Positions 1 to 7,115 of a stretch of DNA of 64,000 bases are shown here, one piece after another. Origin of the DNA: Bacteroidota bacterium (GTDB lineage Bacteria > Bacteroidota > Bacteroidia > JABDFU01). Under the pieces are notes generated by a model that was not told the DNA's origin, did no database searches, and saw nothing but the letters and a program-made list of their open reading frames with translations. Location of the stretch: contig JACPDY010000144.1 of assembly GCA_016183775.1 (NCBI GenBank), positions 6,185 through 70,184 on the forward strand, written 5' to 3'. The translations under genes were made by a program, and so were the position numbers. Within the stretch, counting starts at the first letter, position 1; each line of letters starts with the position of its first letter.

Positions 1-3000
1 AGAGGATATTCAACAGTTCTTGAAAAGCCAACCGGTCAGATTTTTGGAGAATAAGGGGCAGATGTATGATATGACGGGTAAACCGGTTTCTTTTGTATTG
101 TTTAAAGCTTCAGTTCCCGGAATGGATATGTATATTACCGAAAAGGGTCTTACTTATTCATTTGTTAAGTATGAGGAAGATCCTAAGGGTGAAATGCACG
201 CTGAAAAATATGATTCAGCAGGTGAAGAGAACCGGAAAGCTGAATTTCGTCGTGTTGACGTTGAGTTAAAAGGTGGCTCTGTTAAACGTGAAAATATTAT
301 TAAAGAGTTCCCATCGGTCGCTAACTATCATTTTTTCTATAGCCATTGCCAGGATGGAGTTTACGGCGTTAAAGAATACGAAAAAATAACTGTTAAAGAT
401 GTTTACCCTGGTATTGATTGGGTGTTTTACAATTCGGACGAAAAGGGTTTTAAATATGACTTCATTGTTCATCCGGGCGCCAACCCCAGCCTTATCAGAC
501 TTGCATACAGCGGTGCCGACCTTAAAAATATTAATGGTAATATTCAGATATCAACCTCGCTTGGTTTTGTTACGGATAACCGTCCTGTTTCTTATATTGC
601 CGCCACTCGCCAAAGTGTGGAATCTTCATTTGATCTTTCTGAACAAAATGAAATATCTTTTTCCATTGATAATTATTATACCTCTCAAACACTTGTTATC
701 GATCCTCAGATAAATTGGTACACCCGTGGGCAGATAGGGGGGTTTGGAGGAGTACTGGATATGGAAGTGAACCAGGTAAATGGAGATTTTGCTGTGACAG
801 GCTATTACCAGGGAATTGGTTATCCGCTGTTAAATCCGGGTGGAGGCGCATATTTTCAGACCAGCGGTCAGATCATTATAATGTTGTTTAATTCAAAGGG
901 TGTTTTAAAATGGTCTACTTTATATGGGTCTCCATCAGGTAATGCAGATAATTATGGTTATTCTATATGCTTTGATGCGGCCGGAAATATTTTTTTATCG
1001 GGCAGAGGTACTACAGCTGCTAATGGATTTCCACTACAGAATCCGGGTGGCGGAGCTTTTTATCTGGCTAATAATTCCGGGTTTAATACGATTATCTTAA
1101 AGTTCGACCCGAATGGAGTACGTTTATGGGCCACGCATTTCGGTTGGTCCTGGAATACATCCCAGGGTGGTCATGAAGTTGAAGTTGATGCAGCGGGAAA
1201 CCTTTTTGTGGTTGGATCCTGTGGGGGATCAGGTTCTACCACCGCTTTGCCAGTATTAAATCCGGGTGGAGGAGCCTATTTTCAGGGTACAGGATCTGCA
1301 AATGACAATATGTTTATTGCAAAATTCACTAACTCGGGCGTTCTTTTGTGGTCGACCTATTTTGCCGGTAGTGGCGGAAGTTCGGGAGCTGATCTGGCAA
1401 TAGATAATAATGGAAATATTTTTTGCACAGGTTATGCCGGTACAGGATTTCCTGTTCTATCAGCCGGAGGCTATTTCGATAATACGGTAAATGGAATAAG
1501 CGATGTGTTCGTTGTGAAATTCAATAATAACGGAGTTCTGCAATGGTCAACTTATTTTGGAGGTAATGGTAACGCCGATCAGGCCTTCGGAATTGATTGC
1601 GACAATTTGAATAATATAATTATAACCGGGGTAACAAATTCAACGGCCGCTTTTCCGCTTCAAAATCCGGGCGGCGGAGCTTATTACCAGGCAACCAATG
1701 CGGGAGTGAGTGATATTTTTGTTTCCAAATTCACTCCGGCCACAAACCTGTTTTGGTCAACCTACTATGGTGGTGCGGGTGATGATGTTGGTATAATATC
1801 CGCTGTTTTTGTTGGGGATGTTGTTACAGACAATTGCAATAATATATATGTAGTTGGAGCGACCAAAGCGCCCGCCACATTCCCTACGTACAACCCGGGC
1901 TGTGGATCTTTCTACTATAATTATGGCAACCAGGCGATTCTACGTTTTTCCCCGGCGGGAGTGCGGAGCTGGGCAACGTTGTATGGGGAAAGTAATTCTC
2001 CTGCAAGTCAAAGAGCAACAATGACCTGCGCGTATGATAAAAATTCCCGTTGCTTTTATACAGGTGGCGAAATTTATGGTCCTTCCGGACCTAACCCACC
2101 ACCGGTTGATCCGGGCGGTGGAGCTTATTTTAATAGCTATTTTGGTCAAACCGGAGATGATTCATTTATTGCCAAGTTCTCTCCCGATACTCTTAAGTTA
2201 AGTAGTACATTCTCTCCGCCTTCGGTATGTTCATGTAACGGTAGCGCAACAGTGAATATTACCAGTTGCGGAACACCTCCTTATAATTATAAATGGAGTA
2301 ATGGAAGCCAGGCGCTGAATGTTTTAACAGCAAGTAACACCCTTACAGGTCTCTGCTCCGGAAATTATTGGGTTGAAGTAACAGATGCCGCTTGCAATAA
2401 GGATACTGTTTTTTATACTTTTCCCGGAGGACTTTCTTTGAGCAGTACATCCGGAAATGTTATATGCGCAGGATCCTGCAACGGGAGTTCGACCATAACA
2501 CCGGCAGGGGGATCTTCTCCTTACGGCTACTTATGGAGCAATGGTCAAACTGCGCAAACCGCTACCGGACTTTGTACGGGCACTTACTCCGTAGTTGTGA
2601 CGGATGCAGCGAACTGCACTTCGGTTTTGAATGTTACAATAAATAAATTAACCGTCAGTACATCGCAGACCAATGTTTTATGCAGTGGAAATACAACAGG
2701 TAATGCTGTTGTATCGGTTGCGGGTAATACTGGAACCGTAACATACAGCTGGCTGCCTACAGGTCAAACTACAAAGTCAGTAACAGGATTGACTGCCGGA
2801 ATTTATACTGTAAGGATAACTGATGCGAACGGTTGTTCGTTAAATGAAAAAGTATATATTGATGAACCGGAGCCTTTGATCATTACTCCGACCAGTCAGA
2901 ATATCAGCTGCACCACAAGTGGAAGTGCCTCAATAAGTACAAGCGGAGGAATTATACCATATACTTATAGCTGGAACACTGGTCAGACAAGTTCAACTAT

Positions 3001-4009
3001 TTCGTGTCCTACCGCGGGGGACTATACTGTAACTTTGACAGATGCCAATGGATGTACAAGCAGTCAGGTGTTTAACATAACCGGAACTAGTCCCGTTTCA
3101 GCATCATTTACCACTTCATCGACATGCACAGGCAGTTCAGTAACCTTTACCAATACGGGTTCAACGGGCACCTATAGCTGGCTTATTTCACCGTTAAATC
3201 CAAACGTAAGCGGTACTACTACTAACTTTACGTATACTTTTTTAACGGCAGGGAGCTACAGCGTTACACATACAGTTAGTGACGGAACATGTAATAACTC
3301 CATCACAGAAACTATCACAATGATAAATTGTGCCGGTCCTGCAGTAACTGCAACAGGAAATTCAGTATGTTCAGGTAATTGCGCTACAGTGAGCTCCAAT
3401 GGAACAGGAGGCTCGGCTCCATACACCTATTCGTGGAGTAATGGTTCCACGACTCAGAATATTAATCCATGTCCTGTTTCAACCGCCACATACACAGTTA
3501 CAATAAAAGATGCGGGTGGAAATACATCCACTTCAATGGCTGTGGTAACTGTTAATCCTGCTGTGAGCGTGACAACTACTGTAACAAATATAAGTTGTAA
3601 CGGGGGAACAAATGGCAGCGCCAGTGCAAATGTGAGTAGTGGTACACCTGGCTATACATATAGTTGGAGCAACGTGTCGGGTTCCGGGTCAGTGGTTTCA
3701 GGTTTAACTGCCGGAACGTATTCGGTTATGGTAACGGATAGCAAGGGCTGTACTGCCTCATCAACTGTAAATATAGCCGCACCTCCTGCGCTGGCCGGAC
3801 AATTTGCCAAAGGAACTTCCAATTGTGCAGGTTGCGGGTGTAAAGAATGGATAATGATCAATGCTGCCGGTGGAACTAATCCATATTCTTATTCCTGGCC
3901 GGATGGCTATGTGAACAGGTACAAAAATCAACTTTGCCCGGGTGCTTACACTGTAAATATTAAGGATAAAAACGGTTGCAGTGTGAATGTTAACTTTACA
4001 ACGCCATGA
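1..4009 (+). CDS. Large cell-surface protein with SBBP beta-propeller repeats followed by SprB repeats; 5' end lies outside the window; ends inside a repeat with no T9SS C-terminal domain
   Basis: The reading frame is open from nt 2 (..EDIQQFLKSQPVRFLENKGQ), so the start is upstream of the window. There are at least 8 repeats of the NPGGGAYFQ..WSTYFGG type (SBBP/beta-propeller repeat), then at least 10 units of the SprB-repeat type (C..G..tV...GG..PYtYsWsnG......GL.aGtYtV.vtD..GC). The ORF stops (TTP*) in the middle of a SprB unit, and no type A or type B CTD follows. Confidence 0.7.
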   Translation, partial: EDIQQFLKSQPVRFLENKGQMYDMTGKPVSFVLFKASVPGMDMYITEKGLTYSFVKYEEDPKGEMHAEKYDSAGEENRKAEFRRVDVELKGGSVKRENIIKEFPSVANYHFFYSHCQDGVYGVKEYEKITVKDVYPGIDWVFYNSDEKGFKYDFIVHPGANPSLIRLAYSGADLKNINGNIQISTSLGFVTDNRPVSYIAATRQSVESSFDLSEQNEISFSIDNYYTSQTLVIDPQINWYTRGQIGGFGGVLDMEVNQVNGDFAVTGYYQGIGYPLLNPGGGAYFQTSGQIIIMLFNSKGVLKWSTLYGSPSGNADNYGYSICFDAAGNIFLSGRGTTAANGFPLQNPGGGAFYLANNSGFNTIILKFDPNGVRLWATHFGWSWNTSQGGHEVEVDAAGNLFVVGSCGGSGSTTALPVLNPGGGAYFQGTGSANDNMFIAKFTNSGVLLWSTYFAGSGGSSGADLAIDNNGNIFCTGYAGTGFPVLSAGGYFDNTVNGISDVFVVKFNNNGVLQWSTYFGGNGNADQAFGIDCDNLNNIIITGVTNSTAAFPLQNPGGGAYYQATNAGVSDIFVSKFTPATNLFWSTYYGGAGDDVGIISAVFVGDVVTDNCNNIYVVGATKAPATFPTYNPGCGSFYYNYGNQAILRFSPAGVRSWATLYGESNSPASQRATMTCAYDKNSRCFYTGGEIYGPSGPNPPPVDPGGGAYFNSYFGQTGDDSFIAKFSPDTLKLSSTFSPPSVCSCNGSATVNITSCGTPPYNYKWSNGSQALNVLTASNTLTGLCSGNYWVEVTDAACNKDTVFYTFPGGLSLSSTSGNVICAGSCNGSSTITPAGGSSPYGYLWSNGQTAQTATGLCTGTYSVVVTDAANCTSVLNVTINKLTVSTSQTNVLCSGNTTGNAVVSVAGNTGTVTYSWLPTGQTTKSVTGLTAGIYTVRITDANGCSLNEKVYIDEPEPLIITPTSQNISCTTSGSASISTSGGIIPYTYSWNTGQTSSTISCPTAGDYTVTLTDANGCTSSQVFNITGTSPVSASFTTSSTCTGSSVTFTNTGSTGTYSWLISPLNPNVSGTTTNFTYTFLTAGSYSVTHTVSDGTCNNSITETITMINCAGPAVTATGNSVCSGNCATVSSNGTGGSAPYTYSWSNGSTTQNINPCPVSTATYTVTIKDAGGNTSTSMAVVTVNPAVSVTTTVTNISCNGGTNGSASANVSSGTPGYTYSWSNVSGSGSVVSGLTAGTYSVMVTDSKGCTASSTVNIAAPPALAGQFAKGTSNCAGCGCKEWIMINAAGGTNPYSYSWPDGYVNRYKNQLCPGAYTVNIKDKNGCSVNVNFTTP

Positions 4010-4010
4010 G
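3946..4010. repeat. 65-bp perfect direct repeat, copy 1 (identical to 6713-6777); covers the last 20 codons and stop of the cargo gene
   Basis: ttacactgtaaatattaaggataaaaacggttgcagtgtgaatgttaactttacaacgccatgag is identical at both sites. The about 115 nt upstream of each copy are only about 70% identical, so there is a sharp homology boundary. Confidence 0.85.
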
Positions 4011-4191
4011 CTTTTTGGTTTTCCGGTTTTAAAATCGATCAATCTGTCTGCCTGAGGAGGAGCGGAAGCCGATTATTGATTCCGATTTCTATCACTGATC
4101 ACGGATTGCCAGGTCCTCACTACTTCTGTCTTACGCTTGTGCCGTAGCTTCAGCGTAGGAGCACGGCCGAGGAAGTTGCTCTTCGTCTGAT

Positions 4192-4455
4192 TCAGTCGGC
4201 AACTGGCTTGCTCTCAATTTTACTTTTCAGCCATGATATGAAATCAAACATTTCTAAAATCTTTGCTTCAAAGGTGTTTTTAGTGATCGCTTGCAATTCC
4301 ACTTGAAATTCTTTAAAAAATACAATAAGCTCTTTTCGTGAATTTGATTTGGGCAATTTATTCCGAATAAACCTAAGCATAGCACTTTCGGTTTTATACA
4401 ATCGTTTTCTTTTATGCAGAAAGCGATAAGTAGAACGAACGAGATAAGGCAACAA
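4192..4455 (-). CDS. Small basic hypothetical protein (87 aa), possible third gene of the cassette
   Basis: ORF lies 35 nt downstream of the 281-aa gene on the same strand. The N-terminus is Lys/Arg-rich and there is no recognisable domain. A second overlapping ORF in another frame makes the coding status uncertain. Confidence 0.25.
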   Translation of the reverse strand: MLPYLVRSTYRFLHKRKRLYKTESAMLRFIRNKLPKSNSRKELIVFFKEFQVELQAITKNTFEAKILEMFDFISWLKSKIESKPVAD

Positions 4456-4490
4456 TTCATCATTCCCTAATTCATAATGAATTATCAGAT

Positions 4491-5336
4491 TTAATATTCT
4501 TGCAAAGGCAGACTTGTCTGTATTTCTTTTTTAGGATAGAAAACTCCAATGATTACAAATGGATTGGGAGCTCTGCGTGTGTGCCATTCTTTAGTAGTCC
4601 CCAAAAACAAAAAAATATCTTTTTCTTTGAAAAATTCAGTTTCATATCGGTAACGTACTTTTTCCAAAGCCTCTTTTTCATTGCCTTCCGCAGCTCTCAA
4701 GCAATTCCAATATAAACTTCCAATTTCCCAATCTTCAATCATAAGTGTGCTGGAAACTCCTGCATCATCCAGAAAAGTGTAAGAGAATTTATAAGGCAAT
4801 TTTGGAATGAGTATTTCGGGTGATTTATCGGCATCAAATAAATCTTTTTGTTTCCGCAGTTCTTGCCATTCGTTTTTCCATTCTCGCTCATCTTCTTCAA
4901 TTTCAAAAGAGACAAGTTTCGATGGTTTAAATGTTGCAAGCGAAATATTTGAAGGGGCTTTAGAATCTGCCAGCAATTTAGCTTTGTTCGTATATATATT
5001 GGTAAGGCAATATTTTTTACGTTCCTGCCAATTATTTTTAGTGTCGATTTTACCTTCGATTTGAATATTTGAAAAATTATAATCGACAGGAGAGTGACTT
5101 TCTGGACGAAAGTCATCCTTTCTTTTTATCACGTCAAGTTCAATCCAGTTATACTTAAAAGATTCTACCTTCCCATCTTTACGAAGACCAGTTAAAAATT
5201 TTAATGGAACGGGATAAATTCGTATCCATTGCCCATCTTCTGAAACACCAGCAGTACAAACAAGCTCATCGTAGCTTCGAGAAGGCAGGGGATACGTAGC
5301 AACAGTTATTAAGATTTTTTTACGACCAGATTTCAT
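4491..5336 (-). CDS. Uncharacterised 281-aa protein, partner of the Panacea-DUF488 gene (start overlaps upstream stop: ATGA)
   Basis: Clean 281-codon ORF. Its ATG overlaps the TGA/TAA of the upstream gene at nt 5336, consistent with translational coupling. I recognise no motifs. There is no signal peptide or TM segment, so it is predicted cytoplasmic. Confidence 0.6.
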   Translation of the reverse strand: MKSGRKKILITVATYPLPSRSYDELVCTAGVSEDGQWIRIYPVPLKFLTGLRKDGKVESFKYNWIELDVIKRKDDFRPESHSPVDYNFSNIQIEGKIDTKNNWQERKKYCLTNIYTNKAKLLADSKAPSNISLATFKPSKLVSFEIEEDEREWKNEWQELRKQKDLFDADKSPEILIPKLPYKFSYTFLDDAGVSSTLMIEDWEIGSLYWNCLRAAEGNEKEALEKVRYRYETEFFKEKDIFLFLGTTKEWHTRRAPNPFVIIGVFYPKKEIQTSLPLQEY

Positions 5337-6220
5337 TAAATATGTTTTACTTCATATTCAAAGCTTGGCAGTGATTCGATGGCTTCCGCTAAATGCTTTC
5401 TATGACACTGGCATATATTAGCTTCGAAACAAGTTATAGCAATACGTTGATGTTGTTTCAATAGATTTAAAATGGCAGTCTGTGTAGGTTTTGTTTTTGT
5501 AAGGTTATCTTTACGATACACAGCAAACAGCTTATCATAGTCGTTTTGCGAATTTAACTCTTGACGCTGATTAGATTGGATACCTACTTCAGGGAAATGT
5601 AAATATTGTACGCCTACACTTTCACAATATCTTTTGAGCTGATTTTTACTAAAACCATACTTCATGCTTAGTGGATTGTTGCGAACATCCACCAGTATTT
5701 TCACATCGTTTTTAAGAAGGCGGTTTAAATATTCTTCCAGAGAAATACCTTCGTATCCTATAGTAAACAAAACAGTTTTATTACTTTGAGGTTTAGCCTT
5801 GTTTACTTTTTCCAGTTCATCCTTTGTCAAGATGCTTGTAGCCTTTACACTTTTAATAGCATAATATGGGTAGTTGATATATGTATGCTTCATCAGTGCA
5901 GTACTATCCATTTTACCATATAAGGTTTTTATTTCCATTAACCTTTTTTGGTCATCTTCTTTAAGTGCTTTCAGATAATCCGTCTTATCGGCTCTTTTAA
6001 AATGACTATCGGTTTCAGTTAACATACCCTTTTTTACCATCGTGAATAAATCAGCGTAAGCTGAAAAAGAAAAACACCCAAACTTATATGGGACAAAATC
6101 GTATTCGGTTTTTAATTGTTTTATGGTAAAGAGGAAAAGGAGTTTTTGAAGGGAAATTTTCTCCAGCTCACCGCCCAAAAGTTGTATTAAACCTAATATG
6201 ACTTTTCGTCTATAAAACAT
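5336..6220 (-). CDS. Fusion protein: N-terminal Panacea (DUF4065, SocA/PanA-like antitoxin domain) + C-terminal DUF488
   Basis: The N-terminal part (ISLQKLLFLFT...YDFVPYKFGCFSFSAYADL) matches the Panacea consensus (kLQKLLYf...y.a.k.GP). The C-terminal part (TIGYEGISLEEYLNRLLKNDVKILVDVRNNPLSMKYGFSKNQLKRYCESVGVQYLHFPEVG) matches DUF488 (TIGhs..s.eefl..L...gi..lvDVR..P.S..p.f....L...l...Gi.Y.h...LG). An AT-rich promoter-like spacer lies at 6221-6347. Confidence 0.6.
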   Translation of the reverse strand: MFYRRKVILGLIQLLGGELEKISLQKLLFLFTIKQLKTEYDFVPYKFGCFSFSAYADLFTMVKKGMLTETDSHFKRADKTDYLKALKEDDQKRLMEIKTLYGKMDSTALMKHTYINYPYYAIKSVKATSILTKDELEKVNKAKPQSNKTVLFTIGYEGISLEEYLNRLLKNDVKILVDVRNNPLSMKYGFSKNQLKRYCESVGVQYLHFPEVGIQSNQRQELNSQNDYDKLFAVYRKDNLTKTKPTQTAILNLLKQHQRIAITCFEANICQCHRKHLAEAIESLPSFEYEVKHI

Positions 6221-6347
6221 AATAGTATAAAGTTACGGCTTTAATTTGTAAGCATAATCGAGCCTCTGGAATTTATCTACGATAGCCTGTTAATAAAGAC
6301 TTTGCCTGAAAAATGTATTTTAAAAAAATGCACAGGGTATTTCTATT

Positions 6348-6776
6348 ATGACGGGGTACACTATGTCAACCAATTTTCCTGTCTTGGCCGGATTCCAAAT
6401 GTTTTTCGGAGGGGCGGGTGTTGCCGGTACCGGAGATGCCTTCGTTGTTAAGTTTGACCCTGTAGGTAAACGTCTTTGGGCAACTTATTATGGCGGAAAC
6501 GGTGATGTTAAATTAGTACTCATCACAGTTTGTAAAAAAGATAGCTTAACGAAAAGCAATTACATTACAACCACCAAAGGCACTGCCAACTGTACCGGTT
6601 GCGGTTGCAAACAATGGATAATGATTAATGCAACAGGCGGCACAAGCCCTTACTTCTACTCTTGGCCGGATGGGTACGACAAGAGATACAAGAACCAATT
6701 ATGCCCCGGAAATTACACTGTAAATATTAAGGATAAAAACGGTTGCAGTGTGAATGTTAACTTTACAACGCCATGA
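6348..6776 (+). pseudogene. Remnant of a paralog of the SBBP/SprB cargo gene (one degenerate propeller repeat fused to the terminal SprB unit)
   Basis: FPVLAGFQMFFGGAGVAGTGDAFVVKFDPVGKRLWATYYGG resembles an internal SBBP repeat of the first gene. The last about 60 aa are its C-terminal SprB unit, and the last 65 nt are identical. It is opened by an in-frame stop at 6321 and has no signal peptide. Confidence 0.5.
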
Positions 6777-6777
6777 G
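6713..6777. repeat. 65-bp perfect direct repeat, copy 2
   Basis: Identical to 3946-4010. Confidence 0.85.
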
Positions 6778-6779
6778 GG

Positions 6780-7115
6780 CTATTGTTGATCAGGCGCCAG
6801 GATTCCCATTTTATCGGCAAAGTGGCTGCAGTAATCTTTCAGATCATCTGTTATTTTGTCTTCTCCTGTAGCTTTTTTAAAAGTATCGGCCATCGATAAA
6901 AGACTTTGATGGAAAAAACGTTTCATTTCATCGATCGACATATCTTTTGTCCAAAGATCAATACGCAAAGTATTTTGTTCCCTGGCATCCCAAAGAGCGA
7001 TCATTACCGATTTGCTCTGACTTTTTTCGCTCCCATCACTCGTTTCCCAGTTTATTATTGAAGGCAGGTTGTGTTCATCCAGGTTGACTGTAAATTTTAT
7101 CTCTGAGGTCTTCAT
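6780..7115 (-). CDS. gldC: Gliding-motility-associated protein GldC-like (111 aa)
   Basis: Small acidic cytoplasmic protein. EIKFTVNLDEHNLPSIINWETSDG ... LRIDLWTKDMSIDEMKRFFHQSLLSMADTF matches my memory of the GldC family signature. The context is gliding/T9SS genes. Confidence 0.5.
   Translation of the reverse strand: MKTSEIKFTVNLDEHNLPSIINWETSDGSEKSQSKSVMIALWDAREQNTLRIDLWTKDMSIDEMKRFFHQSLLSMADTFKKATGEDKITDDLKDYCSHFADKMGILAPDQQ

Follow-up and report, generated by a model that had tools for sequence, protein, structure and literature searches.

Two abutting minus-strand genes, here called A and B, lie within a 64,000-nucleotide stretch of a Bacteroidota bacterium genome (contig JACPDY010000144.1, positions 6,185 to 70,184; hereafter the window), and we tentatively read them as an antitoxin of the DarG style and a new effector. 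Gene A (5336–6220; PDC-M19A in PADLOC) encodes a 294-residue fusion protein. Its N-terminal domain appears, from profile matches and a predicted structure, to share a superfamily with Panacea and with the DarT-binding domain of DarG, and its C-terminal domain is DUF488. Gene B (4491–5336; PDC-M19B in PADLOC), directly downstream of A, encodes a partner protein of 281 residues, the putative effector or toxin. The reading that we favor, to which we would give a little less than an even chance, is that A is a two-function antitoxin for B in which DUF488 replaces the macrodomain. The window copy is an ordinary member of a widespread and already catalogued family. New here are three things: the N-terminal domain is placed in the DarG-C/Panacea superfamily, B is seen to decay while A is kept, and the two together give an analogy to DarG that can be tested.

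Domain composition of protein A

The N-terminal 148 residues of A (5777–6220, minus strand) fall below the threshold of every Pfam family, and single-sequence scans of Pfam and NCBIfam with the window protein returned no match to SocA_Panacea (PF13274, DUF4065) at E ≤ 1. By Pfam's own criterion the domain is, as far as its sequence tells, not a member of the Panacea family. The wider A family nevertheless points repeatedly in that direction. SocA_Panacea is matched below threshold by 22 of 79 diverse full-length relatives, which are 33–53% identical to the window protein and make up the family alignment, and by 11 of 26 N-terminal domains scanned alone (best E 2.2e-4); it is the sole non-DUF488 Pfam family that recurs among the A-family matches. 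The C-terminal part of the NCBIfam antitoxin_DarG model (NF048014) is matched by 16 of the 26 isolated domains (best E 5e-5), the matches covering model positions 183–273 of 338 and scoring far below the 250-bit equivalog cut-off. The same region of this model is matched by 21 of 36 genuine PanA proteins (best E 1.1e-3). No macrodomain was found in A, as judged by a search for Macro matches in Pfam and NCBIfam.

Structural comparison leads to the same group of proteins. The AlphaFold2 (AF2) model of A, in which the N-terminal domain is predicted to form a winged-helix-like core and a helical bundle, gave a single significant match when compared with the Protein Data Bank (PDB) using Foldseek. 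This was the DarG chain of the DarT–DarG complex 7yk3 (chains B and D; E 8.8e-4, probability 1.0), with template modeling (TM) scores of 0.48–0.51 for the N-terminal domain; PDB entry 7yk3 is the complex from M. tuberculosis. A profile search aligns the segment 'lqklLfl...ydFvPykyGcfS' of A with 'iQKLmyf...lDFtPgrYGPyS' of the 7yk3 DarG chain. In BFVD, a Panacea-annotated phage protein was matched with a probability of 0.99, a TM score of 0.57 and an rmsd of 3.4 over 115 columns, but with an E value of 0.06. Searches of PDB sequences with phmmer and profiles, using A, its N-terminal domain, B or the PanA family, yielded only matches of E ~1. In the model of A, a helix (residues 21–32) is followed by two strands (43–45 and 48–50) that bear the invariant P44 and G48, and then by further helices. 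Invariant columns of the N-terminal domain across the A family are F42, P44, G48, S51, P118, and S124.

On account of the recurrent sub-threshold profile matches and the structural match, we place the N-terminal domain of A, Panacea, and the DarT-binding domain of DarG in one superfamily, within which A appears to lie nearer to DarG than to Panacea. The description of this half as Panacea-like in an earlier note on this DNA thus stands at the level of superfamily kinship, which sub-threshold profiles and structure support, but not at that of the family, given the missing PF13274 match and the closer likeness to DarG. A PADLOC model for Type I specificity subunits (PDLC03184) matches residues 36–124 of A (window 5850–6115) with its positions 448–545 of 554 (E 2e-7), and some of the HsdS proteins behind this model may carry a DarG-C/Panacea-like domain at their C-terminus.

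The identity of the C-terminal half as DUF488 was correctly named in the earlier note. Residues 161–280 (5381–5740, minus strand) match Pfam PF04343 over profile positions 2–120 of 121 (E 1.3e-24; 87.5 bits against a cut-off of 22.2), and all 79 relatives match the same family. The DUF488 motifs are intact (GYEG 155–158, DVRxN 178–182, C264-x-E266, and C272-H-R274). In the family alignment Y156, D178, R180, and S185 are invariant, and conservation reaches at least 90% at G155, E157, G158, N182, K187, C264, E266, C272, H273, and R274. Given the firm assignment to the family and the retention of its conserved residues among relatives of such low identity, the domain is probably an active enzyme. 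With DUF488-N3a (PF22751, 'active N3 subclade') the window protein scores 21.5 bits, under the cut-off of 27; 76 of the 79 relatives match this family sub-threshold at E ≤ 1 (best 8.4e-10), and 4 of the 79 match DUF4326 sub-threshold. By sequence, the DUF488 domain of A represents a subfamily related to, but separate from, DUF488-N3a.

Foldseek matches to the DUF488 half are weak and uniformly of the protein tyrosine phosphatase or dual-specificity phosphatase (PTP/DUSP) type. They are in line with work of 2023 in which Burroughs and Aravind are said to have assigned DUF488 to the rhodanese-phosphatase superfamily and to have predicted for it roles in biological conflict; enzymes of the DUF488 clade were reportedly also predicted in that work to process DNA ends. 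DUF488 is a very widespread stand-alone domain, exemplified by E. coli YeaO. To our knowledge it is among the large bacterial and archaeal domains for which no activity has been demonstrated, we know of no biochemical activity for any DUF488, and we are aware of no report of toxicity for a stand-alone DUF488.

The DUF488 half (residues 149–294, window 5339–5776) also matches two further PADLOC models, PDC-M45B (E 2.4e-13) and PDC-M45C (E 1.6e-10), and DUF488 therefore recurs in defense-candidate cassettes. PDC stands for 'phage defence candidate', and PDC-M19 is multi-gene candidate number 19 (Payne et al. 2024, bioRxiv 10.1101/2024.01.29.577857). The expectation in the earlier note that this locus would assign a first functional context to DUF488 consequently had to be given up: PDC-M19 was already listed, DUF488 occurs in PDC-M45 as well, and Pfam already has the subfamilies DUF488-N3a and DUF488-N3i.

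Distribution of the fusion

The combination of domains in A had also been taken to be unusual, and it turned out to be common. Homologs of A number 7120 at E ≤ 1e-3, mostly from Bacteroidota, and the best 120 of these are nearly all 294 residues long and 72–83% identical to the window protein. With the N-terminal domain alone as query, 753 clusters at 50% identity were recovered, among which nearly all full-length members are fusions of ~295 residues. Within the best 150 of these clusters, 78 are fusions of 280–330 residues, and most of the shorter sequences are plainly cut off, as in a case that stops at '..LFTIGYE'. One protein of 680 residues (P0254) carries an A-type N-terminal domain followed by ~530 residues without a family match in place of DUF488, which indicates that the N-terminal domain is a module, though DUF488 is its normal partner. 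In another protein (P0121, 191 residues) the A N-terminal domain runs in frame into B sequence from about residue 75 onward, apparently as the result of a deletion.

The reading frame itself is as first described, with an ATG start on the minus strand and 294 codons' worth of protein, and the motifs quoted for it are found in the translation (LQKLLFLFT..YDFVPYKFGCFS at residues 24–51; TIGYEG..VDVRNNPLS..YLHFPEVG at residues 153–213). A protein identical to A over its 294 residues is on record (P0001, 'DUF488 domain-containing protein') from a Bacteroidetes metagenome-assembled genome (MAG) contig of 87.8 kb. Thousands of homologs from many lineages have the same length and architecture, and AF2 models A confidently as a single unit, with a predicted local distance difference test (pLDDT) score of 97.8 and a predicted TM score (pTM) of 0.94. 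Together these exclude the reading of A as an artefact, either a chance open reading frame (ORF) or two genes merged by sequencing error, to which we attach a vanishingly small probability.

Viral collections contain almost no copies of the pair. A tblastn search of 50,697 phage genomes with the N-terminal domain of A gave no real match, and a scan of IMG/VR gave two loci only. A phage-borne element was dropped from consideration in view of this near-absence; the matches seen in PHROG probably derive from prophage or host regions.

Conservation of the A–B pair and decay of B

At the TAATG junction of the two genes (5334–5338, minus strand), the last nucleotide of the A stop codon is also the first of the B start codon, an overlap indicative of translational coupling. 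In most related loci the A/B starts likewise overlap or are adjacent, within ~7 nucleotides. The gene order, A followed by an abutting partner of ~300 residues, is that of the validated PanA–PanT pair in phi52237.

Conservation of the pair was assessed in two samples. The A-centered sample comprised the 80 top-ranking genome loci from a search with A, drawn from many Bacteroidota families and a few other bins, and 75 of them left room for B; the B-centered sample comprised the 80 top-ranking metagenome loci from a search with B, and 63 of them left room for A. Across the 80 A-centered loci as a whole, A and B alone recur (A in 80 loci, B in 72). Directly downstream of A, B was present in some form in 72 of the 75 evaluable loci, intact in 65 and frameshifted or interrupted in seven, and it was absent from the remaining three; A was kept intact where B was broken or missing (10/75). 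From the side of B the picture is different, with A present in 63/63 evaluable loci and no intact B seen without A. This asymmetry of decay, 10/75 versus 0/63, has a Fisher p value of 0.0019, and decay of B alone is the pattern expected if B is harmful without A. The clearest case of interruption lies on a Cytophagales chromosome (L024, 7019–8184), in which an IS3-like two-ORF transposase breaks B after codon 46 and leaves A intact. Frameshifted copies of B were found in loci L004, L007, L010, L023, L039, and L073.

At the level of the genes, the pair shows traits of type II (or II/IV) toxin–antitoxin systems: a coupled bicistron, decay of the putative toxin gene with retention of the putative antitoxin gene, and no case among the 63 evaluable loci of the former without the latter. 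Between the two functions proposed in the earlier note, coupling, gene order, and decay favor the second, A as the antitoxin of the 281-residue protein, over the first, DUF488 as an effector or toxin kept in cis with its neutralizer. Subunits of Type I restriction–modification (RM) systems and MmeI/Eco57I-like (IIG) enzymes recur beside the pair in subsets of the 80 loci, and in one lineage the neighbors include SLFN/AlbA_2 and Bro-N genes.

Protein B has no sequence relatives in Pfam, NCBIfam, or the PDB. Its homologs number 6144, none with a Pfam domain among the matches listed. In the related loci L001–L166, B falls into two sharply separated classes that are ~50% identical to each other and, respectively, ~70–83% and ~45–52% identical to the window copy; 55 columns, many of them charged residues, are invariant across both. 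The two domains of A diverge in step (rho 0.85 between their distances), whereas their distances barely follow those of B (rho ~0.2). The AF2 model of B is of medium quality (pLDDT 76.9), its confidence being limited by the shallow alignment of 70–84% identity from which it was built. Foldseek searches with this model returned weak matches only (E ≥ 2.4e-3, TM ≤ 0.36), to TEBP-alpha, Teb1, POT1, RPA, and a HIN domain, all of which are single-stranded or end-binding DNA proteins with oligonucleotide/oligosaccharide-binding (OB) folds. We take the predicted tandem OB-like folds of B as a lead, not as a result.

Proposed mechanism and alternatives

What this analysis observed directly is which domains A contains, that the two genes form a conserved and coupled operon, that this operon is associated with RM genes and defense islands, and that decay affects B alone. 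Proceeding from these, the model that we favor is one in which A and B form a two-gene, toxin–antitoxin-like module of the abortive-infection type. B would act as a harmful effector, and the DarG-C/Panacea-type N-terminal domain of A would hold it by direct binding. The rigidly attached DUF488 domain would be a cysteine-dependent enzyme of the rhodanese-phosphatase type that undoes or pre-empts the action of B on nucleic acid, much as the DarG macrodomain removes the ADP-ribose that DarT adds to DNA. B would then be set free when A is lost or inactivated in the course of an infection. A more specific form of this model, with B as a nucleic-acid-modifying toxin that uses OB-like folds to bind DNA and DUF488 of the DarG analog A as the eraser of its adduct, we consider improbable.

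Several points count against the DarG-style model. Every sequence link of the N-terminal domain to Panacea or DarG is sub-threshold, and profile–profile comparison, which had been suggested as a check of this half, gave a divided answer. As a validated PanA reference we used gp9 of the Burkholderia prophage phi52237 (annotated DUF4065), a tested PanA (PMC8832971), from which a family alignment was built. Aligned with this family by hhalign, the N-terminal domain is colinear over ~130 residues, and the QKL helix, the strand that bears the Gly, and the 'YG..s...L....PW/PY' segment line up, but the alignment is not significant (E 0.02–0.04, probability 1–3%). B resembles neither DarT nor any known toxin fold in sequence and structure searches, and no match to an ADP-ribosyltransferase (ART) fold was obtained. 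The two samples behind the decay comparison were drawn from different collections, and assembly errors in MAGs could have created some of the frameshifts. A test for co-divergence of A and B was negative, distances between A proteins being 0.449 within and 0.451 between classes of B. Without co-divergence, a specific co-evolving interface is not visible, and the equality of these distances indicates that B classes have been exchanged repeatedly among A lineages. The window copy sits among gliding-motility and adhesin genes, with no recognizable defense island. The rigid two-domain architecture predicted for A would also suit a nucleic-acid-binding winged helix that presents substrate to the enzyme. 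Finally, binding of A to B, toxicity of B, the substrate and enzymology of DUF488, and any anti-phage effect are steps that we infer.

Alternatively, A could be a single-chain effector regulated in cis, with a toxic DUF488 held off by the fused Panacea-like domain until a phage cue arrives, and with B as a sensor or adaptor, perhaps one that binds single-stranded DNA. The rigid packing of the two A domains would agree with this, and CapRelSJ46 is reportedly a precedent for such fused toxin–antitoxin sensors. B does resemble nucleic-acid binders more than enzymes, and A does remain intact where B is lost. Such a role sits poorly, however, with the wide occurrence of DUF488 as a stand-alone domain for which we know of no reported toxicity, with its fold class, which implies phosphatase-like 'eraser' chemistry, and with the one-sided decay of B, which is expected of a toxin gene and not of an accessory sensor. 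The invariant and often charged columns of B also make it look more constrained than a simple adaptor, and we regard this explanation as unlikely. The weak structural matches of B invite another interpretation, in which the pair is an RM accessory, a cooperative module for processing, repair, or modification of nucleic-acid ends: B would bind single-stranded DNA or ends, A would dock by its N-terminal domain, and DUF488 would process a terminal phosphate or sugar. That the best matches of B are all single-stranded or end binders agrees with this, as do the proximity of the pair to RM genes of Types I and IIG, the lack of visible A–B co-divergence, and the DNA-end processing reportedly predicted for enzymes of the DUF488 clade. 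Against it, these matches are weak and obtained with a medium-confidence model, the closest relatives of the N-terminal domain are protein-binding antitoxin domains and not DNA-binding winged helix-turn-helix families, and the asymmetric loss of B is left unexplained if one reaction needs both proteins. We hold this interpretation to be doubtful, while giving it some weight.

With the kinship of the N-terminal domain and the decay of the partner alone, a hitherto anonymous pair of genes becomes the subject of a concrete and cheap experiment. Should the DarG analogy prove true, it would reveal how DUF488 acts chemically as well as a new family of toxins. Confirmation of the more specific reading, a B adduct erased by DUF488, would provide the first biochemical activity for DUF488 and a new reversible DNA or RNA modification in phage defense. 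If the analogy is false, the locus simply adds to the copies of an accessory pair that is common in Bacteroidota.

Genomic setting in the window

The intergenic region upstream of A (6221–6347, minus strand) is the presumed promoter region. A sigma-70 promoter and terminator scan, which does not cover Bacteroidota promoters, was uninformative, the sigma-70-type results being no better than those for shuffled sequence. Downstream of B, an ORF of 87 residues (4192–4455, minus strand) matches only positions 417–499 of 502 of the NCBIfam BT2802 family and is, from this partial match, probably the remnant of a larger gene. It lies outside the conserved module, and no counterpart was found in any of the 80 related loci.

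A, B, and this gene remnant occupy a low-GC segment (GC 0.357 for 4001–6000, compared with 0.42–0.44 to its left and 0.378 in the next bin to its right) that is flanked by two copies of a 204-nucleotide direct repeat, 82% identical to each other. The left copy (3807–4010, plus strand) forms the 3′ end of the gene for a very large adhesin with SprB repeats (20–4009, plus strand; 1329 residues), and the right copy (6574–6777, plus strand) is the 3′ end of a remnant adhesin paralog of 142 residues. The latter ORF (6348–6776) carries a trace of SprB repeat in a Pfam scan and resembles an internally deleted paralog of the 1329-residue SprB-type adhesin. As the repeat copies bracket the low-GC A–B segment, this arrangement suggests that the pair was inserted, or that a rearrangement occurred, between tandem adhesin genes; a tRNA gene and an integrase, looked for as marks of insertion, were not found nearby. 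A GldC-like protein is encoded immediately beyond, at 6780–7115 on the minus strand (Pfam E 2.2e-34).

Comparison with known systems

The closest described counterpart of the pair is PDC-M19. A matches the PDC-M19A model (PDLC04505) over residues 1–294 of 294 (E 8.7e-130), B matches the PDC-M19B model (PDLC04508) over its full length (E 2.5e-115), and the two genes have the order and strand of the PDC-M19 cassette FAM_02799>>FAM_02993. This cassette is listed in the supplement with a count of 174 beside the entry and the remark 'Assign as candidate PDC-M19', PDC candidates having been selected for lying within BREX, DISARM, or Type I RM systems (Payne et al. 2024). Nothing structural distinguishes the window pair from PDC-M19; the window copy lies outside RM and BREX loci, between adhesin gene copies and next to gldC.

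With DarG, the N-terminal domain of A shares the QKL..F...DF.P..YG..S motif of the DarT-binding C-terminal domain. By analogy, both antidotes would combine one binding domain and one 'eraser'-type enzyme domain in a single protein, a combination that is proposed in the case of A. The two proteins differ in that A has DUF488 and no macrodomain, and in that the binding domain is N-terminal in A and C-terminal in DarG. The partner B is not DarT-like, and the antidote gene is upstream in the A–B pair, whereas darT precedes darG in the DarTG operon. The sister clade DUF4326 has been found fused to Macro, NADAR, and SLOG domains and was proposed to process ADP-ribose-linked phosphates (PMC9503650); these fusions and this proposed chemistry make the exchange of a macrodomain for DUF488 plausible.

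The relationship to PanA–PanT appears to be one of remote homology, with shared fold elements predicted from sequence and model, namely a central helix followed by a small sheet with a conserved Gly. Both systems are bicistronic with the antidote gene first, and in both the partner classes are swapped between lineages. The Panacea fold comprises a central helix, a small three-stranded sheet with a conserved GPV strand, and surrounding helices (PMC8832971). All tested members of the A family fall below the Pfam gathering score, and they have G-C/P-F/Y-S where Panacea has GPV. The PanAs described so far are extended only N-terminally, by a helix-turn-helix (HTH) or PAD1 domain, and DUF488 is unmentioned in the main text of their description (Kurata et al. 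2022, PMC8832971), whereas A carries a C-terminal enzyme domain. Relative to canonical DUF488 proteins, A has all conserved motifs in common and adds an antitoxin-type N-terminal domain. CapRelSJ46 is reportedly a fused toxin–antitoxin sensor whose enzyme is a known toxin (toxSAS) and which requires no second gene. Like A, it has an antitoxin-related domain covalently joined to an enzymatic domain in a defense context; unlike in CapRelSJ46, the enzyme of A resembles phosphatases, and the gene has a conserved and tightly linked second gene beside it.

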